Below, piece after piece: positions 1-11,525 of a stretch of DNA of 11,525 bases. Origin of the DNA: a virus. The notes under the pieces are model-generated. The model had not been told where the DNA came from and did not search any database. It saw only the letters and a program-made list of their open reading frames with translations. Positions within the stretch are counted from its first letter, which is position 1, and each line of letters starts with the position of its first letter. The DNA lies in the UHGV virus genome UHGV-1357462, one strand, 5' to 3'. Position numbers and translations under genes: made by a program.

Positions 1-786
1 CTGATTGACTGTGCAGCCGAACCGACACAGTTTAACGGACGATCGCTGGTACAGATTGCGCAGGCGCTTGCTGCGCCTTTCGGCATTGAGGTGGTGAACA
101 ACAGTGCGCCGTCGGGTGTTATTCCTGATGTCCAGCCTGATCACGGCGAAACGGTGATTGAGGTGATCAACAAAATACTCGGTCAGCAGCAGGCACTGGC
201 TTACGACGACCCGCACGGCAGGCTGGTGATTGGCGGTATTGGCTCAACGCGGGCACATACCGCGCTGGTACTTGGGGAAAACATCCTTTCCTGTGATACG
301 GAGAAGAGTATCCGGGAGCGGTTTTCAGTTTACCAGGTGGCGGGGCAGCGTGCCGGAAACGACGATGATTTCGGTGAGGCCACCACCACCGCGCTGCGGG
401 CCCGCACAGAGGACGCATTTATTGCCCGTTACCGTCCGATGTATATCAGGCAGACAGGGCAGGCCACGGGGGCAGGCTGTATTGCCCGTGCGGACTTTGA
501 AGCCCGACAACGGGCGGCGCGGACGGATGAAACCACCTATGTGGTGCAGGGATGGCGACAGGGTAACGGTACGCTGTGGCAGCCCAACCAGCGGGTGATT
601 GTCTTCGATCCGGTCTGTGGTTTCGACAATACCGAACTGCTTGTCTCGGAAGTCACGTTTACTCAGGACCAGAACGGCACCCTGACGGAAATCCGTGTCG
701 GCCCACCTGATGCTTATCTGCCTGAACCCGAAGCCCCCGGCGCGCGGAAAAAGAAAAAAGCCAGAGTACAGGAGGACCCGTTCTGA
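1..786 (+). CDS. Phage baseplate hub protein, Mu gp44 (P)-like; 5'-partial
   Basis: Frame 1 has no stop from nt 1 (LIDCAAEPTQFNGRSLVQIAQALAAPFGIE precedes the tracked GTG at 91), so the gene enters from upstream. Its stop overlaps the next start (TGATG, 784-788). It is the first gene of a V / gp46 / J / gp48-like series, matching Mu 44-45-46-47-48 order. The assignment rests on synteny and remembered family appearance, not on alignment. Confidence 0.7.
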   Translation: MIDCAAEPTQFNGRSLVQIAQALAAPFGIEVVNNSAPSGVIPDVQPDHGETVIEVINKILGQQQALAYDDPHGRLVIGGIGSTRAHTALVLGENILSCDTEKSIRERFSVYQVAGQRAGNDDDFGEATTTALRARTEDAFIARYRPMYIRQTGQATGAGCIARADFEARQRAARTDETTYVVQGWRQGNGTLWQPNQRVIVFDPVCGFDNTELLVSEVTFTQDQNGTLTEIRVGPPDAYLPEPEAPGARKKKKARVQEDPF

Positions 787-1334
787 TGAGGACGATTGAA
801 GCCATGCAGCGACAACTCCTCGGCCTGATTGGGCGGGCTGTGGTGAAAAGCATCAGTGCCGCCACGAAATGTCAGACCGTGGATGTGTCCCTGATTGCCG
901 GTGAACCCAAAGCCGGGGTTGAACATCTTGAACCCTACGGTTTTACCGCAAGGGCAAACAGCGGTGCGGAAGCGGTGGTGTTGTTTCCGGATGGCGACCG
1001 TTCTCATGCGGTGGTTGTTACGGTGTCGGACCGGCGCTACCGCCTGAAAGGGCTGCAGACGGGTGAGGTGGCTGTCTATGACGATCAGGGGCAGTCCGTG
1101 ACGCTGACCCGGGAGGGGATCGTGGTGGACGGTGCAGGTAAGACGATCACGTTTCGCAATGCGCCCAGAGCACGTTTTGAAATGGACCTGGAAGTGACCG
1201 GACAGGTGAAAGACCTGTGCGACTCCGGCGGCACCACCATGTCAGCGATGCGGCTTGCCTATAACGGGCATCGTCACAGAGAGAACGGTCAGGGCAGTAA
1301 CACCGATAAACCTGATAAAGCGATGGAGGCATGA
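786..1334 (+). CDS. Baseplate spike / assembly protein V (Mu gp45, P2 gpV-like)
   Basis: 182-aa ORF, translationally coupled on both sides (TGATG upstream, ATGA downstream). The central segment GEVAVYDDQGQSVTLTREGIVVDGAGKTITF...LEVTGQV looks like the gpV spike fold. Its position between the hub and the gp46-like gene fits. Confidence 0.8.
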   Translation: MRTIEAMQRQLLGLIGRAVVKSISAATKCQTVDVSLIAGEPKAGVEHLEPYGFTARANSGAEAVVLFPDGDRSHAVVVTVSDRRYRLKGLQTGEVAVYDDQGQSVTLTREGIVVDGAGKTITFRNAPRARFEMDLEVTGQVKDLCDSGGTTMSAMRLAYNGHRHRENGQGSNTDKPDKAMEA

Positions 1335-1759
1335 TGGAACTGTGGCTGACGGTGAACGGTAAACGCACCTGCGCCAGCTCACCGCTGGATCCGCTGACCC
1401 GCGCCGTGGTGATTTCCCTGTTCACCTGGCGGCGGGCGGAGCCTGATGACAATGCCGACGTCCCGATGGGATGGTGGGGGGATACCTGGCCTGCGGTACA
1501 GAATGACCGTTACGGCTCCCGACTGTGGCTGCTTCAGCGCAGCAAACTGACCAATCAGCTGGTGCAGACGGTAAGGGGGTATATCCGCGAATGCCTGCAA
1601 TGGATGATTGATGACGGCGTGGTGTCCCGTATTGATCTGGATATCCGCCGCACCGGGATTAATGAGCTGGGTAACAGTATCACCCTCTGGCGTCGTGACG
1701 GACCGGTAATGATTTCTTTTGATGATCTGTGGAGTGCGATAACGCATGGCGGACAGTGA
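1331..1759 (+). CDS. Mu gp46-family baseplate protein
   Basis: 142-aa ORF with an ATGA overlap to the V gene. The segment WGDTWP...YGSRLWLLQRSKL resembles the GP46 family as I remember it. It sits directly upstream of the J-like gene, as in Mu. Confidence 0.75.
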   Translation: MMELWLTVNGKRTCASSPLDPLTRAVVISLFTWRRAEPDDNADVPMGWWGDTWPAVQNDRYGSRLWLLQRSKLTNQLVQTVRGYIRECLQWMIDDGVVSRIDLDIRRTGINELGNSITLWRRDGPVMISFDDLWSAITHGGQ

Positions 1760-2804
1760 ATTTCAGCGCCCGACGCTGGCAGAAAATATCAGTATGCTCC
1801 GTAACGATTTATTCGCCAGGCTGGACGTCAGCGACACGCTCCGGCGCATGGATGAAGACGTGCGGGCAAAGGTGTATGCGGCGGCGCTGCATACGGTTTA
1901 CGGGTACATCGATTATCTGGCAATGAACATGCTGCCTGACCTGTGCGATGAGTCCTGGCTGGCGCGACATGCTGCGATGAAACGGTGTCCGCGCAAGGGG
2001 GCCACGGCTGCCAGCGGGTATATGCGCTGGGAAGGTGTCAGCGATGGCCTGAAGGTGACTGCCGGGAGTGTTATTCAGCGCGATGACCTGGTTCAGTACA
2101 CGGCAACTGCCGATGCAACCAGCTCCGGTGGTGTCCTGCGCGTGCCGATCGCCTGCTCAAGTGCAGGCGCGGTCGGTAACGCTGACGACGGTACGTCATT
2201 AATCCTGGTCACGCCGGTTAATGGTCTGCCGTCTTCCGGCGTGGCAGATACCCTGACAGGTGGATTTGATACTGAAGAGCTGGAAACGTGGCGCGCCCGC
2301 GTCATTGAGCGATATTACTGGACGCCTCAGGGCGGGGCTGACGGGGACTATGTCGTCTGGGCTAAAGAAGTGCCCGGCATTACCCGCGCATGGACATACC
2401 GTCACTGGATGGGAACGGGAACTGTCGGTGTGATGATTGCCAGCAGTGACCTGATTAATCCCATTCCGGAAGAATCAACGGAAACGGCGGCAAGACAACA
2501 CATTGAGCCACTGGCCCCGGTGGCAGGCTCTGATTTGTATGTATTCAGGCCGGTGGCACATACGGTGGATTTTCATATCCGCGTGACGCCGGACACACCA
2601 GAAATACGGGCTGCCATTACCGCGGAGTTGCGTTCGTTCCTGCTGCGTGATGGTTATCCGCAGGGAGAACTGAAGGTATCGCGTATCAGTGAGGCGATTT
2701 CCGGTGCGAACGGGGAATACAGCCATCAGTTGCTTGCACCGGTGGACAATATCTCCATTGCGAAAAATGAGCTGGCGGTTCTGGGGACGATTTCATGGAC
2801 GTGA
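1746..2804 (+). CDS. Baseplate J-like protein (Mu gp47 / P2 gpJ / e14 JayE family)
   Basis: 352-aa ORF that overlaps its neighbours by 14 and 10 nt. Size and position match Baseplate_J family wedge proteins, and the composition is GC-rich like the rest of the operon. Confidence 0.85.
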
Positions 2805-3379
2805 CAAACGATGATTACATCCGCCTGTTATCGGCACTGTTGCCGCCCGGTCCTGCATGGTCAGCCAGCGATCCGGCGATTGCCGGTGCGGCACCTTCAT
2901 TAACCCGCGTTCATCAGCGTGCGGATGCTCTGATGCGGGAGCTTGATCCGCGCACCACCACCGAGCTGATAAATCGCTGGGAGCGTCTGTGTGGCCTGCC
3001 GGATGAATGTATTCCCGCAGGGACACAGACCCTTCGCCAGCGTCAGCAACGGCTGGATGCGAAGGTTAACCTGGCGGGTGGCATCAACGAGGATTTTTAT
3101 CTTGCACAGCTTGCTGCCCTGGGCAGACCAGATGCCACCATCACGCGATACGACAAAAGCACGTTCACCTGCTCATCGGCCTGTACTGACGCTGTGAATG
3201 CGCCGGAATGGCGGTATTACTGGCAGGTCAACATGCCAGCCGCCACCAACACCACCTGGATGACATGTGGCGATCCCTGTGATTCCGCGCTGCGTATCTG
3301 GGGCGACACCGTTGTCGAGTGTGTGCTTAACAAACTCTGCCCGTCGCATACCTACGTAATTTTTAAATATCCGGAGTAA
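2795..3379 (+). CDS. YmfQ-like / DUF2313 tail protein (Mu gp48-like)
   Basis: 194-aa ORF. The N-terminal [16 protein letters not shown] is the signature start of YmfQ/Mu gp48-type proteins. It lies between the J-like gene and the tail fibre, as in e14 and Mu. Confidence 0.8.
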
Positions 3380-3382
3380 TCC

Positions 3383-4129
3383 ATGCATCGTATAGACACG
3401 AAAACCGCGCAGAAGGATAAGTTCGGCGCGGGTAAGAACGGTTTTACCCGTGGTAACCCCCAGACAGGCACGCCTGCCACCGATCTGGATGATGACTACT
3501 TTGACATGTTGCAGGAAGAACTCTGCAGCGTGGTGGAGGCATCCGGTGCCAGTCTGGAGAAGGCGCGGCACGACCAACTGCTTACCGCGCTTCGTGCGCT
3601 GCTGTTAAGCCGCAAGAATCCGTTTGGCGATATCAAATCGGATGGCACGGTGAAAACGGCTCTCGAAAACCTTGGTTTGGGAGAAGGTGCTCCAGCTATT
3701 GGCGTTCCGTTCTTCTGGCCGTCCGCTGCAATGCCAAATACTGTAATCGACAGCTGGTCCAGTATGGTGTTTTTGAAGTTCAACGGCGCGAAATTCTCTG
3801 CCACTGATTATCCTGTGCTGGCGAAAGTGTTTCCTTCGCTGGTATTACCTGAAGCCCGCGGTGATTTCATTCGTATCTGGGATGACGGGCGAGGTGCAGA
3901 CGGTGGTCGCGAATTATTAAGCTGGCAGGAAGCTACAAACTTTTCTCAGTTTGCCGGGAATATAGGCGGAGGTGCGGGACACGCAATTAACTTTCATGAT
4001 GGCATCGCCGGAAATCAGCCAGGATTTTCACGATTTAATTTCACCAGTAACTCTGTGGGTGATGGTGTGAATTTTGTTGCTGTCAGACCGCGAAATATTG
4101 CATTTAACTTTCTGGTGAGGGCTAAATAA
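3383..4129 (+). CDS. Short tail fibre protein (constant N-terminus fused to the currently expressed variable C-terminus, Sc+Sv)
   Basis: 248-aa ORF. The N-terminus [46 protein letters not shown] is the conserved start of short fibres in Mu-tail-type prophages. Codons 93-101 (ALENLGLGE) coincide with the left inversion site. DNA becomes visibly AT-richer after that point. The stop overlaps the tfa start (TAATG). Confidence 0.85.
3660..3685. repeat. Left DNA-invertase crossover site (hix/gix/pix-like)
   Basis: ctctcgaaaaccTTggtttgggagaa. It matches the reverse complement of 5465-5490 at 21 of 26 positions, including a perfect 14-bp block (3672-3685 vs 5465-5478) and the same central TT dinucleotide. 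It has the AAACC-NN-GGTTT core typical of Hin/Gin/Cin/Pin sites. Confidence 0.8.
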
Positions 4130-4722
4130 TGAAACCTGTTTTTGATGAAAATGGGCTGGCTACAGTGCCGGGCGATATGCGTTGTTTTTATTATGATGCT
4201 GAAACATCTGAGTATACGGGCTGGTCTGATGAATATATTAATACTGGCGTAAGTATGCCCGCCTGTTCCACTGGTATTGACCCGGGCGAAAACATTCCGG
4301 GGAAAGTGGCAGTATTTACGGGTAAGGGATGGAGCCATGAAGAAGACCATCGCAATGAGACTGTTTACTCAACAGAAAATGGCGCAGCTGTTACAGTGGA
4401 TTATATCGGTGCCATCAAAGACGGTTATGTCACGCTTTCACCGTTAACGCCATACGATAAATGGGATGGTGAGAAATGGGTGACGGATACCGAGGCACAG
4501 CATAGCGCCGCAGTAGACGCGGCAGAAGCACAACGTCAGTCACTGATTGATACTGCAATGGCTTCCATTAGTCTGATTCAACTGAAATTGCAGGCCGGAC
4601 GGAAACTGACGCAGGCAGAAACAACCCGACTTAACGCCGTGCTGGATTACATTGACGCGGTGACGGTAACAGATACCAGCACCGCGCCGGATATCATCTG
4701 GCCTGAACTGCCGGAGGCGTAG
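4129..4722 (+). CDS. Tail fibre assembly protein (Tfa / gpU-like), expressed orientation
   Basis: 197-aa ORF coupled to the fibre gene. The C-terminus LNAVLDYIDAVTVTDTSTAPDIIWPELPEA is the hallmark tail-fibre-assembly chaperone C-terminus. Confidence 0.85.
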   Translation: MKPVFDENGLATVPGDMRCFYYDAETSEYTGWSDEYINTGVSMPACSTGIDPGENIPGKVAVFTGKGWSHEEDHRNETVYSTENGAAVTVDYIGAIKDGYVTLSPLTPYDKWDGEKWVTDTEAQHSAAVDAAEAQRQSLIDTAMASISLIQLKLQAGRKLTQAETTRLNAVLDYIDAVTVTDTSTAPDIIWPELPEA

Positions 4723-5113
4723 GCCATTCAATATCTGGCGCACTGGAAGTATCGACCAGCTCCAGTGCGTCCAGATAATCCAGCCACAAATTATATTGCG
4801 CCAGTTCCTCACCTTTCAGACGACCAATAGCCGCTTTACCAGGCCATTGCCTGCTGTTCATGTGCTCGTTGGCTTCATTAATAAGTTTTCCTTTTTTCAA
4901 CTCTGCCAATGCAATAAGGTTTTCTTTTGATAAAGGTGGTTGCTCTGTCAAAACCGGATATCCCTCCTGATTGCTGACTATTTTCATGCCATTATCCTGA
5001 CCATCCAGTAGTGACAGCCATTCATCCGTGGTTATCTCAACAGCATCTGAAGGTGCTTTATTTAAATCGGTAAAAAAACCATTTTCTTTTTGTGAATAGA
5101 AGTATCTGTCCAT
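4694..5113 (-). CDS. Alternative tail fibre assembly protein (Tfa' / gpU'-like), silent orientation
   Basis: 139-aa ORF. The N-terminus is MDRYFYSQKENGFF and the C-terminus is LWLDYLDALELVDTSSAPDIEWPTPP, the same family hallmark. It is convergent with the other tfa and overlaps it by 29 nt. It lies directly downstream of the Sv' cassette. Confidence 0.8.
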   Translation of the reverse strand: MDRYFYSQKENGFFTDLNKAPSDAVEITTDEWLSLLDGQDNGMKIVSNQEGYPVLTEQPPLSKENLIALAELKKGKLINEANEHMNSRQWPGKAAIGRLKGEELAQYNLWLDYLDALELVDTSSAPDIEWPTPPAVQAR

Positions 5114-5116
5114 TTA

Positions 5117-5464
5117 TCAATCTCCAAAAGCAATCCAGTAAGCAAAAGGATTTATTCCTTGCTCAGTCACAGATGACATCAGGGAAAATTGCGATGGTGA
5201 AACAGGTAATGCTGCAAAACTAACCATTGTTGACACACCTGACCGTGCATTATCGTACGATGCAACAACACAATAATTGGTATTGCTGAAAGATATCGGC
5301 AGGGTGATATTTACAGGTGAGCCTAATGGCCCTGATGCTGATATTCCCATTTGAATGATGGTTCCATCAGGCAATTTTCTCCAGCGATTAGAACTCGGAT
5401 TTCTTTTCCAGGCTGACATATCCGGTATCTGATTTTCTCCTGTGCCTACATCCCTTTTCGCCGC
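5117..5464 (-). CDS. Promoter-less alternative tail-fibre C-terminal cassette (Sv')
   Basis: The minus-strand frame is open through the right crossover site. The peptide ...NVGLGEAAKRDVGTGENQIPDMSAW... shares GLGE with the fibre at the left site. Inversion would therefore fuse fibre codons 1-101 to this cassette. The tracked Met at 5518 has no usable SD. Confidence 0.7.
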   Translation of the reverse strand, partial: AAKRDVGTGENQIPDMSAWKRNPSSNRWRKLPDGTIIQMGISASGPLGSPVNITLPISFSNTNYCVVASYDNARSGVSTMVSFAALPVSPSQFSLMSSVTEQGINPFAYWIAFGD

Positions 5465-5490
5465 TTCTCCCAAACCAACGTTTATGAAAA
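5465..5490. repeat. Right DNA-invertase crossover site (hix/gix/pix-like)
   Basis: ttctcccaaaccAAcgtttatgaaaa. It is the inverted partner of 3660-3685, lies 55 bp upstream of the invertase ATG, and resembles remembered hixL/gix sequences. Confidence 0.8.
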
Positions 5491-5544
5491 TGCAGAAATA
5501 ACGAGCAAATGGCATCATTCCTGCTTTTGTCAGGGAGATCTACC

Positions 5545-5901
5545 ATGCTTATTGGCTATGTACGTGTGTCAACAAATGACCAGAACACAGATCTACAGCG
5601 TAATGCGCTGAACTGTGCAGGATGCGAGCTGATTTTTGAAGACAAGATAAGCGGTACAAAGTCTGAAAGGCCGGGACTGAAAAAACTGCTCAGGACATTA
5701 TCGGAAGGTGACACTCTGGTTGTCTGGAAGCTGGATCGGCTGGGGCGTAGTATGCGGCATCTGGTCATTCTGGTTGAGGAGTTGCGCGAACGTGGCGTTA
5801 ATTTTCGCAGCCTAACGGATGCTATTGATATCAGCACGTCGATGGGGCGTTTTTTCTTTTATGTGATGGGGGCCTTGGCTGAAATTGAGTTTCAGGATTA
5901 A
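5545..5901 (+). pseudogene. pin: Serine DNA invertase, Gin/Pin/Cin/Hin family; 3'-truncated (catalytic domain only)
   Basis: MLIGYVRVSTNDQNTDLQRNAL...VVWKLDRLGRSM...GRFFFYVMGALAEIE is near-identical in pattern to Gin/Pin, with the catalytic Ser in YVRVSTNDQ. An SD (AGGGAG) lies 7 nt before ATG 5545. Family similarity stops at about nt 5889, followed by FQD-stop. Full-length family members are about 180-195 aa and carry a C-terminal HTH. No other frame continues the homology. Confidence 0.85.
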
Positions 5902-6062
5902 GCGATATCGTACTCACCCTTGGTCCCACCTAATAAATCTGAAGAACGGAAGCGCTGCCAGATGATGGTGGTGGCTACAATTATTCACACTCAATCTTCG
6001 GAGCAATCACGTACATCATAATGATGTTAGGAATACGGAGTTTAATGACTGTCCAGTGATGT

Positions 6063-6091
6063 AAAAAGAAACCCCGGCGTAGTAGCCGAGG
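6063..6091 (-). terminator. Rho-independent terminator of the protease gene
   Basis: On the minus strand the sequence reads CCTCGGC-TACTAC-GCCGGGG, a 7-bp stem with one G-U pair, followed by TTTCTTTTT. It lies 24 nt after the stop codon. Confidence 0.7.
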
Positions 6092-6114
6092 TCCTCAATC
6101 AGAAACTACAATAT

Positions 6115-7119
6115 TCACTGAGTGCCTTCATCTGGTTGCTCTGCTGGTAAGGTTCCAGCCTCTTCTTCAGTTTCCGCATGTTTTCCATCGCCTCCCTGGA
6201 CAGGTTCATCCCTTGGCGGTTCTGCTCTTCCTGAATTTTGGTCAGAGATTTCATCTCCTTCCTGAATTCTGCTGTTGTCATGGGAATCTTCCTCTGCGTT
6301 AGTTGTTTCATATTGTTTTTTAGGAGTTAAATCTTTAATCATCGGTTTGTCGAAGATAGAGATTTCGCCTGACGAAATCATTTCACCAAGAACTTCGTAC
6401 AGGTTGGCTGCAAAATCTGTAGGACTCTCAACATGGTTGAATAGTTCCCTCGCCTCTTTACGGTCTATCACAAAACCATGGGCTGGATATCCAGCGATCA
6501 ACTTGCCTAATGAGCTTTCCTTAAGATTTTTCGAGTGACTATTCAAACGTTCCCCATAGGAAAGCGCTATGTTCATTGCTCGCTGATGCTCCCCGAGTTT
6601 GATAGGGTCTATCTGTGAGGCCATCGGCGATATGATTGCTTCAGTAAGCTTAGCAGCAATATCTGCAGACATCTTTGTGCTAATTTGGTTTCTGTACTTT
6701 ATATCAAGTACGTATGATCTAAAGGTCGAAATAGCGCACTCTTTTATTTCATCAATCGCCGTTGCGATAACAAGGCCCGAGCTCAATTCGCCGATCTCAT
6801 CATTTTTCTTAAGTTGGATATCTAGAGGGCCAAGCTCACCCATATCACCAATCACGAGCTTATGAGCGGCGACAGCCATCAATGTTCCAGCACTTTTGCA
6901 AGGGCCAACAACTAGAACGGTGATGTGCTCATAGTTGTGTTGCAAAGCGCGGCCAATTCTATATCCTGCGCTGGGATCACCGCCATAGGTAGCGACGCAA
7001 AAAAGAACATTTTTTTGTAAACCATGGTTAGTTTTTCTTTCTTTAATCGCTTTGGTGATGTCGTGATGACCAGAGCGGTGAACATCGCCTATGTATACGT
7101 AAACGTCTGTATCTTGCAT
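6115..7119 (-). CDS. ClpP/SppA-fold serine protease (SDH-family Clp-fold proteinase-like) with an acidic low-complexity C-terminal tail
   Basis: 334-aa ORF with an SD (AGGGA) 5 nt before the ATG. The core FCVATYGGDPSAGYRIGRAL...ITVLVVGPCKSAGTLMAVAAHKLVIGDMGELGPLDIQL fits the remembered pattern T-x-GG...S-A-G-T...LGP-x-D-x-Q of S49/SDH Clp-fold peptidases. The last ~70 aa are rich in Glu, Asp, Gly, Pro and Gln. The family call comes from motif memory, not from a search. Confidence 0.65.
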   Translation of the reverse strand: MQDTDVYVYIGDVHRSGHHDITKAIKERKTNHGLQKNVLFCVATYGGDPSAGYRIGRALQHNYEHITVLVVGPCKSAGTLMAVAAHKLVIGDMGELGPLDIQLKKNDEIGELSSGLVIATAIDEIKECAISTFRSYVLDIKYRNQISTKMSADIAAKLTEAIISPMASQIDPIKLGEHQRAMNIALSYGERLNSHSKNLKESSLGKLIAGYPAHGFVIDRKEARELFNHVESPTDFAANLYEVLGEMISSGEISIFDKPMIKDLTPKKQYETTNAEEDSHDNSRIQEGDEISDQNSGRAEPPRDEPVQGGDGKHAETEEEAGTLPAEQPDEGTQ

Positions 7120-7320
7120 TTTAATCCCTATGAATAAAATGGTTGAATTTAATGCTGTTCCTCAGCCAAAGCACTGTATCGATAACCAAAATACCTCAGA
7201 TTTGTCGAGAAAACTATCTGGAAAATTAGGCTAACTCTTTGAATCTTCGGAATGCAAAAAAGATAATTTCTCTGGATGGGCGCTAAGTTGATGTGTAAGT
7301 ATGACGGTTAGAACGGTCTC

Positions 7321-7359
7321 GGAAACCGCAGGCACGTCGTATGCAAGAACGTGCTGCGG
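7321..7359 (-). terminator. Weak or leaky hairpin terminator after the dinI-like gene
   Basis: On the minus strand the sequence reads CCGCAGCACGT-(11-nt loop)-ACGTGCCTGCGG, an 11-bp GC-rich stem with one bulge. Only TTTCC follows it, so the U-tract is poor. Confidence 0.35.
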
Positions 7360-7427
7360 CTGGCTGGCGAACTTTCGATAGTGCGAGTATTGAATGATTT
7401 CCAGCCGTTACCGATTTTACGTGTTAA

Positions 7428-7676
7428 TTAGTGAACAAACCACTCGTCAGCAGATTCCCAGGTATCTTTCAGAGTCTCCTGAACAAAAGTTTTTGCAGAA
7501 TCCTTATCTGCGGTGCGTGTAACAGAAAGGCCATCGTTGCTGGTGGCTTTTACGATCACCTCTACATCGTCATAACGTTTACTGATGCGTCGGGTTAATT
7601 CTTCCTTTAACGCATCCACAGCACCGGTTGGCATTTTAGTCATTTTTTCTTTGGCTATGCAGATTTCAATACGCAT
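7428..7676 (-). CDS. dinI: DinI-family protein (DNA-damage-inducible, RecA modulator-like)
   Basis: The 82-aa product [40 protein letters not shown]...[16 protein letters not shown] parallels E. coli DinI (MRIEVTIAK...GAIDAL..EL.RRI...ETWESADDWFV). It has an SD (AGAGGGA) and a LexA-controlled promoter upstream. Confidence 0.9.
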
Positions 7677-7689
7677 AAAAGTCCCTCTA

Positions 7690-7709
7690 CACTGTGTTTG
7701 TATACAGTA
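7690..7709 (-). promoter_or_regulatory. LexA box 1 (SOS operator), between the -10 element and the SD of the dinI-like gene
   Basis: The minus strand reads TACTGTATACAAACACAGTG. This is CTGT-N8-ACAG (7692-7707), close to the consensus TACTGTATATATATACAGTA. Confidence 0.85.
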
Positions 7710-7712
7710 TTA

Positions 7713-7741
7713 TTTTTAACTGTATGAATAAACAGTGTCAA
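7713..7741 (-). promoter_or_regulatory. Sigma-70 promoter of the dinI-like gene
   Basis: On the minus strand there is TTGACA (7741-7736), a 17-nt spacer, then TAAAAA (7718-7713). The spacer is occupied by LexA box 2. Confidence 0.7.
7718..7737 (-). promoter_or_regulatory. LexA box 2 (SOS operator), filling the -35/-10 spacer
   Basis: The plus strand reads aaCTGTatgaataaACAGtg, which is CTGT-N8-ACAG at 7720-7735. Its centre is 28 bp from box 1. Confidence 0.85.
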
Positions 7742-7760
7742 TAGAACAAAGATTGCTGCA

Positions 7761-8178
7761 TGTACAAATGTTCTTTGGCTACAAATACACCTACTGATCA
7801 TGTTCTGCTATGCTCTGATACCTCCAAAATGTACAATCAGCGGCATGAATTTTTCTTTGTACATATGATTGTACATAATTAAAGAGACAACAATTATGAC
7901 AAGCCTTTTGGCCGCAGAGGTAGCGAAAAGAAGAACCTTTGCAATTATTTCTCACCCCAATAATTAAGTCCAAATTAAAGCTCTTTTACTCTTTCAAAAT
8001 CCTTTCAGTTAATTGAAGTTGAGCTATATAACTCATTTAAATACATTTGTTTATGTAGCTTCTTTAATTGAAAACTCTTTCATGTAACTTTAAATCGATC
8101 AGCTTGCTTTCATCAAAAACCTGTACATATGCTTGTACATAATGTACAAAACAGCAGAGGTGTTTTGCGATTTGTACA
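7761..8178. repeat. Two clusters of TGTACA(W)A repeats flanking the prfC-like core; candidate attP arm-type recombinase or RDF binding sites
   Basis: There are eight TGTACA hexamers, at 7761, 7830, 7858, 7870 | 8122, 8134, 8143, 8173, and I found none elsewhere in the window. A 22-bp direct repeat, tgtacatatgAttgtacataat (7858-7879) vs tgtacatatgCttgtacataat (8122-8143), has one mismatch. Confidence 0.6.
7896..7967 (+). other. prfC: Surrogate 5' end of prfC (RF3), 23 codons, containing the probable att core
   Basis: It translates as [23 protein letters not shown]-stop. E. coli PrfC starts [28 protein letters not shown], so similarity runs through ...ISHP (to about nt 7958) and then breaks. 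The fragment lies 220 bp upstream of the integrase on the same strand. Confidence 0.75.
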
Positions 8179-8187
8179 AGGTGAGTA

Positions 8188-9411
8188 ATGGCGCTGTCTG
8201 ATGCGTGGTTGCGTTCAGTCGTTGGAAAGGAACGTGATAAGGTTTTGGTTAAATCCGATCGTGATGGTCTGTCTGTCAGAGTATCACCGAAAGGTCGCGT
8301 AGTGTTCCAATATCGTTATCAATGGGCAGGGAAAGGTGAGCGTCTTGATATCGGAACTTACCCGGCAACTGGATTAAAAGAGGCCAGAGAAGAAGTTATC
8401 CGTCTTCGTGGTGAACTCGAGTCAAACCGTAATCCACGATTGGTCAAGCAGGCTGAAAAACGAAAAGCTACTGAAGCCATGACGGTAGAGTCTGTGATCC
8501 GTGCTTGGTATGAAGCATATTGTGTAAAAAATAAAAAAGGTTCTGAACAGATACTTCGCTCGTTTGAGCTGCACCTGTTCTCTAAAATCGGGAATATCCC
8601 TCACGATGCAGCTACATTGCATGATTGGTTAGAAGTCCTGGAGCCTCTTAGCACTAAGACTCCAGCAATAGCAGACCGATTGCTAATTAACGCAAAGCAG
8701 GCCCATGTCTGGGCGTATAAGAGAAAGCTCATTGAAACTCGCCCGCTGTCGGATATCACGGGTAAAGATATGGATATCCGTAAAGGTCAGAAGAAACGGT
8801 TTCTGACACATGATGAAATTAAAATCCTTTATGCTGCGATCGATGGTTCTCGAATGGTTCCTAAATACCGGGCCTTCATTAAACTATTGCTGCATTTTGG
8901 TTGCCGTAGTTCAGAGCTAATTACCGCCCGGGTGGACGATTTTGATTTCATTAATAAAGTATGGACTGTACCACCAGAACGACATAAGACAGGGGAGATA
9001 ACAGGCGAACCGCTAAAGCGGCCCATTATTGAACCGGTTGAAGAGCTTATAAAGTACGCTATCTCTATGAACAATGGTTCCGATATGCTTTTTACTAAGG
9101 AAGGAAGCAGGGAACCCGTTGGTCGGACATCATTGCAGTCGCTGCCTTACAATTTAATGCAGTACGCATGGCGGTGTTTAGGATATCAATTCCCTCATTG
9201 GTCTCTTCATGACTTGAGACGTACAGCTCGAACAAATTTTTCTGATCTTACTGCGCCTCATATCGCAGAAATTATGCTTGGTCATAAGCTGCCAGGGGTA
9301 TGGCAAGTTTATGATAAGAGCGATTATCTAGAAGAACAGCGTAAAGCTTACCTGGCATGGTGGAAGAGGGTTGAATCGATTGTTAATTGTACTATCTCTG
9401 ATTCAAACTGA
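8188..9411 (+). CDS. int: Tyrosine integrase, P4/SXT-like (DUF4102 N-terminal arm-binding domain plus catalytic domain)
   Basis: 407-aa ORF. The N-terminus LSDAWLRSV...DGLSVRVSPKGRVVFQYRYQWAGKGERLDIGTYPATGLKEAREE is the DUF4102 pattern. Catalytic signatures are present: FGCRSSEL (Arg), WSLHDLRRTART (H-x-x-R) and MLGHK...WQVYDKS (His...Tyr). Confidence 0.9.
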   Translation: MALSDAWLRSVVGKERDKVLVKSDRDGLSVRVSPKGRVVFQYRYQWAGKGERLDIGTYPATGLKEAREEVIRLRGELESNRNPRLVKQAEKRKATEAMTVESVIRAWYEAYCVKNKKGSEQILRSFELHLFSKIGNIPHDAATLHDWLEVLEPLSTKTPAIADRLLINAKQAHVWAYKRKLIETRPLSDITGKDMDIRKGQKKRFLTHDEIKILYAAIDGSRMVPKYRAFIKLLLHFGCRSSELITARVDDFDFINKVWTVPPERHKTGEITGEPLKRPIIEPVEELIKYAISMNNGSDMLFTKEGSREPVGRTSLQSLPYNLMQYAWRCLGYQFPHWSLHDLRRTARTNFSDLTAPHIAEIMLGHKLPGVWQVYDKSDYLEEQRKAYLAWWKRVESIVNCTISDSN

Positions 9412-9697
9412 CGGTTTGTATCACCTGAACATAACCAAATCTCCTAGCACACTTTGAGCGAGATGTGAGCGTTAAGTTTACGCCATTGTGTTGACATAAG
9501 AGGGGGGCGGGTATCGATATCATCACTATCCCTATGCCCCTAAATCGCTCCTGCCATTTGATAAATGCAGATGTTTACCACCAAATGTTTTTGATACTAT
9601 AGGTCGATTCATGATTTACCTAGAAACTTAGTTGTAACGAAAACTTCTTAACGGACACTATCTGGATAAAGTTAGTTTTTTATTTAAGAGGGTTAAC

Positions 9698-10417
9698 ATG
9701 TCAAAGTTAAAAAATGAACCATTAGTAAGGGTATCAGAAGAAGACGGAATAGAAATAAGGAAGATCCAATATCCAGATAATACGATAGAAAGAATTTATA
9801 AGCAGAAAGGTGTAATATTACCACGAATACCTTTAAAAGGCCGCTTTGTAGAACAATATGTGGCCTTACAGTTGCTTGATAAAGATCTTCGGAATGTTAT
9901 TGGTTGGGAGAATATAATAAAAAACATTTGTAATAACATTAATAAAGAACAACACTTTATTTATCCGGATTTAGAAAAGAATCTAATATTAAAGTCTTTA
10001 TTTATATCAAAAGTTGTTACTTACGGTAAGTGTTTTACAGAGGCGAAAGGGCGTCGATTCACATTGCAGAGAAAGCATGTGCCAGAAAAATACAGAGATT
10101 TACATGATTCTATTATGAATGTTAGACATAACTTTGCTGCCCATAAAGGTGAATTCGAATATGATCAATGTGGCTTGGTTTTAATATTGCCGGGGACCAA
10201 GAAGAAAAGGTACTATCATATTTTTTCAGAGCTCAATCAAATAAATTACGGTAATAATGAGGAAGATGATGAACGTTTTTTTATGTTATATGATTCACTG
10301 CGTGAAGTCATTAAAGAAAAACAAGATAAATTAATTGATAAAATATACGCTGAAAAGATTCATACTCAAACAATGGAGTATTGGTTGAGCCGAGCAGGAA
10401 AAGAAACAGAGATTTAA
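9698..10417 (+). CDS. Orphan hypothetical protein, 239 aa, very AT-rich; possible HEPN-like (R-x5-H) abortive-infection or exclusion protein
   Basis: It is an isolated ORF with an SD (AAGAGGG, 9686-9692) and ~280-bp non-coding flanks. I recognise no family. The motif V-R143-H-N-F-A-A-H149 (nt 10124-10144) is present. The composition contrasts strongly with the phage backbone. Confidence 0.6.
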   Translation: MSKLKNEPLVRVSEEDGIEIRKIQYPDNTIERIYKQKGVILPRIPLKGRFVEQYVALQLLDKDLRNVIGWENIIKNICNNINKEQHFIYPDLEKNLILKSLFISKVVTYGKCFTEAKGRRFTLQRKHVPEKYRDLHDSIMNVRHNFAAHKGEFEYDQCGLVLILPGTKKKRYYHIFSELNQINYGNNEEDDERFFMLYDSLREVIKEKQDKLIDKIYAEKIHTQTMEYWLSRAGKETEI

Positions 10418-10613
10418 TTTGTTCAGTATATAAAAGCTAATTTTTAAGGAGTAATTTTAAGATGATTAAAGCTGATTACATTGCGATAGGTACTCTACGA
10501 CTAACTTTTCAACAAGATTAAGGGGGTAATCAATTTTATTTGTATCAATGGTATGACATTTCTTGGTGATAATGTTTTGATCTTATCGATTCATGTCATA
10601 TGGTCATTGGTGA

Positions 10614-10639
10614 CGTCCGCTCTTGGTAAAGAGTGGACG
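10614..10639. other. Stem-loop between the convergent orf239 and xis
   Basis: cgtccgctctt-ggta-aagagtggacg forms an 11-bp stem with one G-U pair. No U-tract follows on either strand, so it is not a canonical intrinsic terminator. Confidence 0.4.
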
Positions 10640-10699
10640 CTCAGATTAGGTTTGGCATCTAAGCATAGATGTGTCAGCTCACATCTAAGCTAATACATA

Positions 10700-10894
10700 T
10701 TACTCAATCACTCCCGCAAATCTGTAAATCTTGTGTGATGCCCATTTATTTGGGCAGGATTTAATATCAGGATCTGGAAAGTCAGGCCTGTATTTCTGAC
10801 CAGTTCTCCTGTTTACGCTGTTCCAGCGAAGAACTGTCGATACTGAAACACCACAGAAATCGGCGACTTGTTTAGTTGTCATTAAGTTGTTCAT
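10700..10894 (-). CDS. xis: AlpA-family excisionase / recombination directionality factor (HTH)
   Basis: The 64-aa product has MTTKQVADFCGVSVSTVLRWNS...FPDPD...NKWASHKIYRF, which fits the AlpA/Xis winged-helix pattern (l..keva.l.gvS.sTv.rW....FP.P....rW). Its start overlaps the upstream stop (TAATG). This RDF type typically partners with P4-like integrases. Confidence 0.8.
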   Translation of the reverse strand: MNNLMTTKQVADFCGVSVSTVLRWNSVNRRTGQKYRPDFPDPDIKSCPNKWASHKIYRFAGVIE

Positions 10895-11525
10895 TACTTC
10901 ACCTCCTGCGGCGGCTCCGGTAGTGGCATCCAGTGGGTTACTTTCGATGCCTGTTCTTCCTCATTGTCAGTAACTGCCCACCATTTGTTTCTCGACCAAT
11001 CGTAATACCCTTCGAAGGTATCGCACTCAGTCCAGCCGTAAGACTTCCCCCAACACCAAACATACTGTTTATCATTCGGCATTCGCTCACTACAGCTTAT
11101 CCAACCACCCGGACTTACCGGAGAGTTGCCAGACAGCGCGTTCTGCAGCCGTTCCAGCTTAACGTATTCCTGAACCCTGTTTCCGTCGCACACCTGAAGC
11201 CATTGCGCAGCCTTTTGCGCATCAGTGTGAAAGGCACAAGTGCGACCGTCATCAAATTGCATTTCGTAGAGGTCAGCAACTTGTTCAAACTGCGTGTGTG
11301 GTGACTTGTAAGTTTGGTTTACAGGTTCGGCACCATGAAGCATGGCGGCGCGGCAGGCGTTCCAGCCTTCATCAAAACCGACTATGCCATTATTTAAAGA
11401 CGGACGAGCATCTGGCACTACCGGCACTGGCTTGGCTATATATAGCGGCTGAACATACCAGCCCTTTGATAACCAACTGTCAGCAATGTTTTTACACCTC
11501 GTTATTGCCGGAATACCTAAGCCAT
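10894..11525 (-). CDS. DUF551-domain early-region protein; the 5' end probably lies beyond the window
   Basis: The C-terminus GGWISCSERMPNDKQYVWCW...WWAVTDNEEEQASKVTHWMPLPEPP is the DUF551 pattern common in lambdoid early-left operons. The tracked start is GTG 11427 without an SD. The frame stays open with no stop up to nt 11525, so the gene is likely 5'-partial. Confidence 0.7.
   Translation of the reverse strand, partial: GLGIPAITRCKNIADSWLSKGWYVQPLYIAKPVPVVPDARPSLNNGIVGFDEGWNACRAAMLHGAEPVNQTYKSPHTQFEQVADLYEMQFDDGRTCAFHTDAQKAAQWLQVCDGNRVQEYVKLERLQNALSGNSPVSPGGWISCSERMPNDKQYVWCWGKSYGWTECDTFEGYYDWSRNKWWAVTDNEEEQASKVTHWMPLPEPPQEVK

Follow-up and report, generated by a model that had tools for sequence, protein, structure and literature searches.

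HepS of the Salmonella prophage Gifsy-1 is a partner-less HEPN abortive-infection (Abi) protein that stays inactive unless bound by a phage tail-tip protein; once bound, it cuts tRNA anticodon loops (PMC13043305). The peptide that triggers HepS binds by building a beta sheet with the protein (PMC13043305). Here we describe a 239-amino-acid (aa) open reading frame (ORF) at positions 9698-10417 of virus genome UHGV-1357462, a stretch of 11,525 nucleotides that we refer to in its entirety as the window, and we regard HepS, by analogy, as the closest functional precedent for the encoded protein. Solo HEPN-type Abi proteins and prophage defense hotspots are already known; the family to which the 239-aa protein belongs is not described or annotated in any library that we queried. 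We tentatively propose that the ORF encodes a stand-alone HEPN-like effector of this new family, and that it may serve as a single-gene anti-phage (abortive-infection or exclusion) module of temperate phages and mobile elements.

The likeness to HepS extends to several properties. Both proteins are the products of single, partner-less, prophage-borne genes located at accessory-gene positions of lambdoid phages, both have lengths of ~200-240 aa, and both carry an RxnH motif on a helical core. Furthermore, the 239-aa protein has predicted beta elements around its helical core, and the HepS trigger binds via a beta sheet. Unlike HepS, and unlike classical HEPN proteins, the 239-aa family carries Rx5H, an N-terminal beta unit, a hairpin that follows the motif, and extra invariant Y, K, R and H residues. 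Its sequence has no detectable relationship to that of HepS, and sequence-profile searches of the PDB with two family alignments found no chain that is detectably similar. Two candidate ORFs in the Gifsy-1 LT2 record were tried as HepS and rejected, as both lack the R100-H105 motif.

The HepT/DUF86 toxins of the type VII MntA-HepT systems (PDB 5yep/6m6u, 7ae2) differ as follows: the 239-aa protein has no MNT antitoxin neighbor, is 100 residues longer, contains beta insertions, and carries Rx5H where HepT carries Rx4H. For a direct comparison, 120 DUF86 relatives were collected with S. oneidensis HepT as the query, whose sequence was verified to be 100% identical to PDB 6m6u/5yep, and these were aligned to the family alignment with hhalign. 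The resulting probability (0.15%) is non-significant, although this same alignment places the motif R on R and H on H with the preceding helices in register.

Lactococcal AbiU2, AbiV and AbiD/F (PF18734, PF18728, PF07751) offer the precedent of a stand-alone or minimal Abi factor with a HEPN core on mobile DNA, and an AbiV-family gene shares a prophage cargo array with one homologue of the 239-aa protein. However, no member of the 239-aa family reaches the Pfam threshold of any of these families. AbiV itself is without the motif histidine (PMC3710099), and this same histidine is near-invariant in the 239-aa family.

Conserved motif and predicted topology of an unannotated family

An exhaustive profile search with the 239-aa protein yields 925 family clusters (50% identity) at E<=1e-3, and a stricter cut-off of E<=1e-10 leaves 398. 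Most proteins in the 150 best-scoring clusters listed have 220-260 residues, with no sign of fused extra domains. Named members come from Enterobacterales, Vibrio, Photobacterium, Psychromonas, Alteromonadaceae and Pseudomonas, and all database entries that we examined are called 'hypothetical protein'. The initial annotation of the window recognized no family for the ORF, and this remains the case: the 239-aa protein has no family match in Pfam, NCBIfam or PADLOC (PADLOC-DB v2.0, 5027 models: 0 matches at E<=1), and PHROG 8440, which does match it, carries no function label. Likewise, a literature search with the protein accession found no paper.

The HEPN superfamily is defined by an Rx4-6H motif in which the R is followed by a polar residue, mostly N, D or H (Anantharaman et al., 2013; PMC3710099). 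The initial annotation drew attention to R143-HNFAA-H149 as a fit to this pattern, and both elements of the signature are present not only in the 239-aa protein but throughout its family. In an alignment of 116 diverse homologues, which are 19-54% identical to the query with a mean column identity of 25%, R143 is kept in 116/116 and H149 in 115/116, with a spacer of 5 residues; conservation of these two positions among homologues was a check that the initial annotation had named. At position 144, 64 homologues have H, 50 have N and 2 have D, such that a polar H/N/D follows the arginine in every case. A148 (111/116) and G151 (112/116) are also well kept. Outside the motif, Y109, R119 and H136 are each found in 116/116, D63 in 115/116, K111 in 113/116 and F113 in 112/116. 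D63 resides in a K-D-L-R context.

A short motif of this kind could arise by chance, as the initial annotation cautioned. This concern is well founded for the bare motif, given that Rx4-6H appears in 74% of shuffles of the 239-aa protein and R[NDH]x3-5H in 17%. Thus, the motif alone is not above chance, but its conservation across the 116 homologues exceeds chance.

We built an AlphaFold2 model of the 239-aa protein from a 24-sequence alignment (predicted local distance difference test score, pLDDT, 87.1; predicted template modeling score, pTM, 0.76). The model comprises a three-stranded beta unit (9-36) followed by helices at 49-79, 92-111, 130-148 and 188-221. A loop insert between helices 2 and 3 (112-129) carries R119, and a beta hairpin (157-180) comes after the motif. 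HEPN domains consist of two alpha-hairpins; an insert separates helices 2 and 3, and the motif falls where helix 3 ends or the loop to helix 4 starts (PMC3710099). The predicted topology agrees with this four-helix layout, in that the model places residues 143-149 at the end of helix 3. The fold match is not specific to HEPN, because designed bundles and chemoreceptor sensor domains score 8.0-8.9 against the model in structure comparisons.

Sequence-profile tests of HEPN homology gave a different picture. No match of the 239-aa protein to HEPN_AbiU2 (PF18734) is seen in Pfam at E<=1, and 2/116 family members give weak HEPN_AbiU2 matches (E ~0.015) that are near noise, with none above the gathering score. 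The family consensus does not match the HEPN models. An AbiV-family protein (L052:3151-3804) whose gene adjoins that of a homologue yields an hhalign probability of 0.17% against the family, which has no HEPN_AbiV (PF18728) match in Pfam. The lactococcal plasmid pMRC01 carries no AbiF or AbiU annotation. The initial annotation had associated the context of the motif with AbiU2-, AbiV- and Abi_2-type proteins, and this part of it is not supported: no statistically significant link to any HEPN family emerges. The family therefore has the motif and the predicted topology of HEPN proteins without detectable homology to them, and may represent either a new HEPN family beyond the reach of profile tools or a convergent look-alike.

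The ORF itself is a real gene under purifying selection, with a dN/dS (nonsynonymous to synonymous substitution) ratio of 0.09-0.12 against homologues of 77-86% identity. The exact 239-aa protein is recorded on 885 contigs, and the locus is found in 71/5426 complete E. coli genomes and in Escherichia phage 2H10. As first described, the ORF stands isolated on the + strand behind its own Shine-Dalgarno (SD) sequence, AAGAGGG, between spacers of 286 bp (9412-9697) on the left and 282 bp (10418-10699) on the right. Its AT-richness relative to the phage backbone is also confirmed: the G+C content of the ORF is 227/720, or 31.5%, compared with 44% for int and 56% for the tail genes (91-4722), and the two 60-nucleotide lines quoted in the initial annotation contain exactly 13 and 42 G+C.

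Two small ORFs were weighed as possible partners. A 19-aa ORF (10462-10521, MIKADYIAIGTLRLTFQQD) stands directly downstream of the 239-aa ORF behind a strong AAGGAG SD sequence. It was rejected as a partner and is probably not coding, because an 11-nucleotide duplication breaks its frame in an otherwise identical allele (L021). A 46-aa ORF was also considered; a Photobacterium integron cassette holds the family ORF alone. An Rfam scan of both spacers found no RNA family, and hence no antitoxin RNA.

Two further variants of the locus deserve mention. An IMG/VR allele (L035, 1510-2226) whose product is 63% identical while its flanks are 99% identical was considered as a case of allelic diversification, and this was rejected when DNA alignment revealed two compensating frameshifts in A-runs. 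These 1-nucleotide indels shift the frame over ~280 nucleotides of the ORF, and reflect either sequencing error or phase-variation-like slippage. The ORF locus of the E. coli genome NZ_CP116067.1 carries an IS1 insertion.

The int-xis cargo slot and the locations of homologues

The 239-aa ORF lies between the genes for a tyrosine integrase (int) and an excisionase (xis), and the initial annotation supposed that it splits a pair that is normally adjacent. The position is correct, but the lineage keeps cargo there as a rule. Among 12 sampled alleles of the slot there are at least 9 cargo types, int (+) and xis (-) are always separated by cargo, and no empty slot is seen. The site is a dedicated cargo slot rather than a split pair, since cargo separates the convergent int and xis genes in 12/12 alleles. 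The flanks shared by the alleles end on the left at 9393-9462, within ~50 bp of the int stop codon, and resume on the right at 10607-10668, just beyond the xis stop codon. All sampled prophages with this integrase reside beside yjjG, and their homology with the window starts at 7916, the attachment (att) junction. The integrase is present in 698/5426 E. coli genomes, and the 239-aa ORF in 70 of these 698 (~10%).

What else occupies this slot? Recognizable cargos include a dGTPase (PADLOC 3.5e-105), the Borvo protein BovA (PADLOC 1.4e-174, split into two ORFs), and a DUF6602 nuclease with additional matches to the PADLOC models NucC (E 1.9e-16) and PD-DExK (2.6e-24). A 646-aa TPR protein has weak PDC-M02A matches only. 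The remaining cargos are of unknown kind: three single proteins (331, 342 and 413 aa) and one 436+81-aa pair, with no Pfam or PADLOC match where tested; the 331-aa protein is WP_000653746.1 and also occurs in strain UTI89. The TPR protein and these unknown cargos were seen at loci L005/L046, L006, L007, L050 and L048. The int-xis slot is thus a cargo hotspot enriched in defense systems, and the view of the 239-aa ORF as a stand-alone accessory gene in a defense-type, integrase-proximal hotspot is supported by dGTPase, Borvo and the NucC-like nuclease as alternative cargo. The ORF shows each of the properties by which we recognize defense-hotspot cargo: conserved flanks, alternative defense alleles, and homologues in other hotspots or islands. 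In its conserved flanks (int versus xis/DUF551) and interchangeable AT-rich cargo, the slot resembles the P2 and P4 hotspots and other integrase-proximal moron slots. It differs from them by its location in lambdoid prophages integrated next to yjjG, and a non-exhaustive literature search found no paper on an int-xis hotspot of such prophages.

Homologues occupy comparable sites elsewhere. Those of 38-42% identity lie directly downstream of P2/186-type int genes at the prophage edge, usually overlapping the int stop codon, and others (31-86% identity) come after umuDC, which itself follows the tail-fiber genes, near prophage ends. A filamentous Vibrio phage carries one in its accessory region. 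The Photobacterium sp. J15 homologue is the only ORF of an integron cassette that has attC-like repeats on either side (7885-7990 and 8683-8788), in an array of ~20 such repeats. Because this cassette holds a single ORF, the family gene needs no neighboring partner. A V. alginolyticus homologue adjoins TacAT and two CBASS systems, and an alteromonad homologue adjoins SMODS and DUF6602 genes. At the loci examined, no homologue lies within a replication or structural module; prophage ends, an integron cassette and defense islands are the settings observed, and none of the computational outcomes by which the initial annotation could have been overturned was encountered.

A P2-like prophage of Psychromonas aquimarina (L052, 2783-7720) carries a seven-gene cargo array between int and a cI-like repressor gene. 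Besides the family member, this array has genes for HEPN_AbiV, a TIR_2 protein and an ion-channel protein, as well as a 93-aa ORF and two unknown genes, and it constitutes a compact multi-system island inside a prophage.

Defense genes carried as integron cassettes have been described, including BRiC systems such as Esos, V. mimicus HNPBCG_15845, and Vpc_cass2 (PDB 3jrt); Esos and HNPBCG_15845 were compared with the 239-aa family by description only. HNPBCG_15845 is reported to have a recognizable AbiU2 domain, whereas the 239-aa family is without one.

Possible functions of the 239-aa protein

If the ORF encodes a HEPN-like effector, its function might proceed as follows. In a lysogen, the ORF would be transcribed independently, starting in the AT-rich spacer that follows int. 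The cytoplasmic protein would oligomerize via its four-helix core, and this would join R143, H144 and H149 in a metal-independent RNase site that probably also includes the invariant D63, Y109, K111, R119 and H136. The protein would stay latent until an infecting phage supplies a cue, which could perhaps be sensed by the N-terminal beta unit and the beta hairpin inserted right after the motif. Once triggered, it would cleave host and/or phage RNA and thereby halt the infection. We infer HEPN homology, oligomerization, RNase or toxin activity, the trigger and the anti-phage phenotype of the 239-aa protein; purifying selection, motif invariance, single-gene autonomy and residence in a defense hotspot are directly observed features of the gene, to which the model adds a predicted topology.

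Several results weigh against this proposal. There is no significant profile or structural similarity to any established HEPN family, and Foldseek searches of the PDB and BFVD with the AlphaFold2 model returned nothing significant; the mostly helical, HEPN-like fold anticipated in the initial annotation is therefore borne out as to the helical bundle and the position of the motif, but not by any structural match in these databases. HEPN families usually have a conserved acidic residue near the motif, within an Ex3[KR] of helix 2 (PMC3710099), whereas D63 is placed in predicted helix 1. Y109, K111, R119 and H136 are invariant as well and could be the basis of a different chemistry. No PADLOC model is common to more than 1/116 family members, one Pseudomonas homologue has neither mobile-element nor defense genes among its called neighbors, and a consensus scan of the + strand found no sigma-70 promoter and no intrinsic terminator for the 239-aa ORF. 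Finally, we found no experiment on any family member.

Some of these observations would suit a defense or conflict effector that is built on a helical bundle but is not HEPN. In such a protein, which we consider unlikely, the invariant R/H/K/Y/D cluster would bind or process some other phosphate-bearing substrate (a nucleotide, an NAD-type cofactor, a signaling nucleotide or DNA), or the protein would act as a sensor or adaptor. The hotspot and island context is the same for either type of effector, no HEPN family is detectable by profile, four of the invariant residues (Y109, K111, R119 and H136) fall outside the classical HEPN signature, and generic four-helix bundles match the fold equally well. 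Nevertheless, an R-[HND]-x4-H that closes helix 3 and always keeps the polar residue after R is exactly the HEPN signature, and no alternative enzyme family was matched either. A different question is whether the protein serves its carrier rather than the host. The family is carried on mobile elements (prophage ends, a filamentous phage, integron arrays), toxin-antitoxin modules abound in integron arrays and prophage ends, and HigB and TacAT genes neighbor homologues at two loci (L053 and L015). It is conceivable, if rather improbable, that the protein acts selfishly in addiction, exclusion or competition between elements, for instance as a latent toxin that stabilizes its element or one aimed at rival prophages and plasmids, with no broad role in anti-phage defense. 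This account is at odds with the absence of a conserved partner gene, as exemplified by the integron cassette with the family ORF alone, with the broken frame of the 19-aa ORF and the lack of an Rfam antitoxin RNA in the spacers, and with slot-mates that are defense systems rather than toxin-antitoxin modules.

The location directly downstream of two different integrase families, after a P4-type int (286-bp spacer) in the window and overlapping the stop codons of P2/186-type int genes elsewhere, could also be taken to indicate an accessory or regulatory factor for integration and excision. We regard this as very improbable. It is disfavored because ~90% of prophages with the same integrase carry unrelated cargo instead, and because many homologues have no integrase nearby (the integron cassette, those after umuDC, in defense islands, and in Pseudomonas); moreover, the domain scan detected no DNA-binding domain. 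A stand-alone HEPN-like effector remains the reading that we favor, tentatively. A bolder form of it, which we consider doubtful, would make the family a new and widespread class of single-protein immune sensor-effectors, in which D63, Y109, K111, R119 and H136 together with R143, H144 and H149 form a catalytic center that goes beyond the classical HEPN dyad, the beta module senses a phage component, and the chemistry or target is new to HEPN proteins, with distribution over at least five kinds of mobile-element cargo sites across Gammaproteobacteria.

If the HEPN-like effector proposal is correct, a large and so far invisible family of 925 clusters would join the anti-phage repertoire, and the 239-aa protein would offer a minimal one-gene model for work on what keeps solo HEPN-type effectors silent and what triggers them. 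The lambdoid prophages integrated next to yjjG, whose integrase is present in ~13% of complete E. coli genomes, would likewise have their int-xis slot marked as a defense hotspot. The unknown cargos of this slot would then be ready candidates for new defense systems.

Other features of the window

The coordinates of the features are collected in Table 1. The window represents part of the genome of a temperate phage and has the attP configuration. An AT-rich att region lies between the dinI homologue and the integrase gene, and TTGTACA occurs there eight times in two clusters (7761-7875 and 8133-8179) that flank the homology junction near 7916, a count that 0/200 shuffles reach. Judged from the sequence pattern, these repeats are probably the integrase arm-type sites of attP, overlapping the int promoter region. 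Their presence around the junction indicates an attP rather than a prophage configuration.

Table 1. Positions of the features in the 11,525-nucleotide window.
Feature	Position	Strand	Basis or remark
239-aa ORF	9698..10417	+	ATG start, ORF listing; founding E. coli member of an unannotated ~240-aa single-domain family
Shine-Dalgarno AAGAGGG	9686..9692	+	Read from sequence; 5 nucleotides before the ATG of the 239-aa ORF
Candidate extended -10 element TGaTACTAT, weak -35	9592..9600	+	Relaxed promoter scan; inference only
Codons of R143-H-N-F-A-A-H149, candidate HEPN Rx5H catalytic motif	10124..10144	+	Sequence; C-terminal end of predicted helix 130-148
Tyrosine integrase, Arm-DNA-bind_3 + Phage_int_M + Phage_integrase domains	8188..9411	+	Domain scan; left wall of slot
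Variable cargo segment of int-xis slot	9420..10610		blastn of five other-cargo alleles (L004-L008) against the window
Excisionase, PHROG 1553, HTH_17-like	10700..10894	-	Convergent with 239-aa ORF; right wall of slot
Mu/P2-type baseplate and tail-fiber genes	91-5113		
Truncated Gin/Pin-type invertase	5509-5901		130 aa; resolvase catalytic domain kept, no C-terminal helix-turn-helix
ClpP/SDH-like protease gene	6115-7119	-	334 aa; Pfam E 2.9e-6, below threshold
dinI homologue	7428-7676	-	
DUF551 gene	10894-11427	-	

A 20-nucleotide inverted repeat (3667-3686 and 5464-5483, 95% complementary) brackets a 1.78-kb segment with alternative tail-fiber and tail-fiber-assembly genes, which may be an invertible host-range switch that has become frozen. 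Between the invertase gene and dinI, the 334-aa ORF encodes a protein whose N-terminal region is of the ClpP/SDH serine-protease type and whose C-terminal tail is acidic. The protein matches PHROG 21683, which carries no function label, and has no PADLOC match; its gene is another uncharacterized accessory gene.

Immediately 3' of the xis stop codon, in the conserved right flank of the slot, there is a perfect 8-bp hairpin (TAGATGTG-tcagct-CACATCTA, 10666-10687) with no T-run after it on either strand. This hairpin could be a transcript-end or protein-binding site.

Escherichia phage 2H10 shares only 7323-11525 (dinI, att, int, the 239-aa ORF, xis and DUF551) with the window, at 97% identity. 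Positions 1-7322 are not common to the two, and in place of the Mu/P2-type baseplate genes of the window, the tail genes of 2H10 are lambda-like. Therefore, this integrase-proximal module has been exchanged between phages with different tails.
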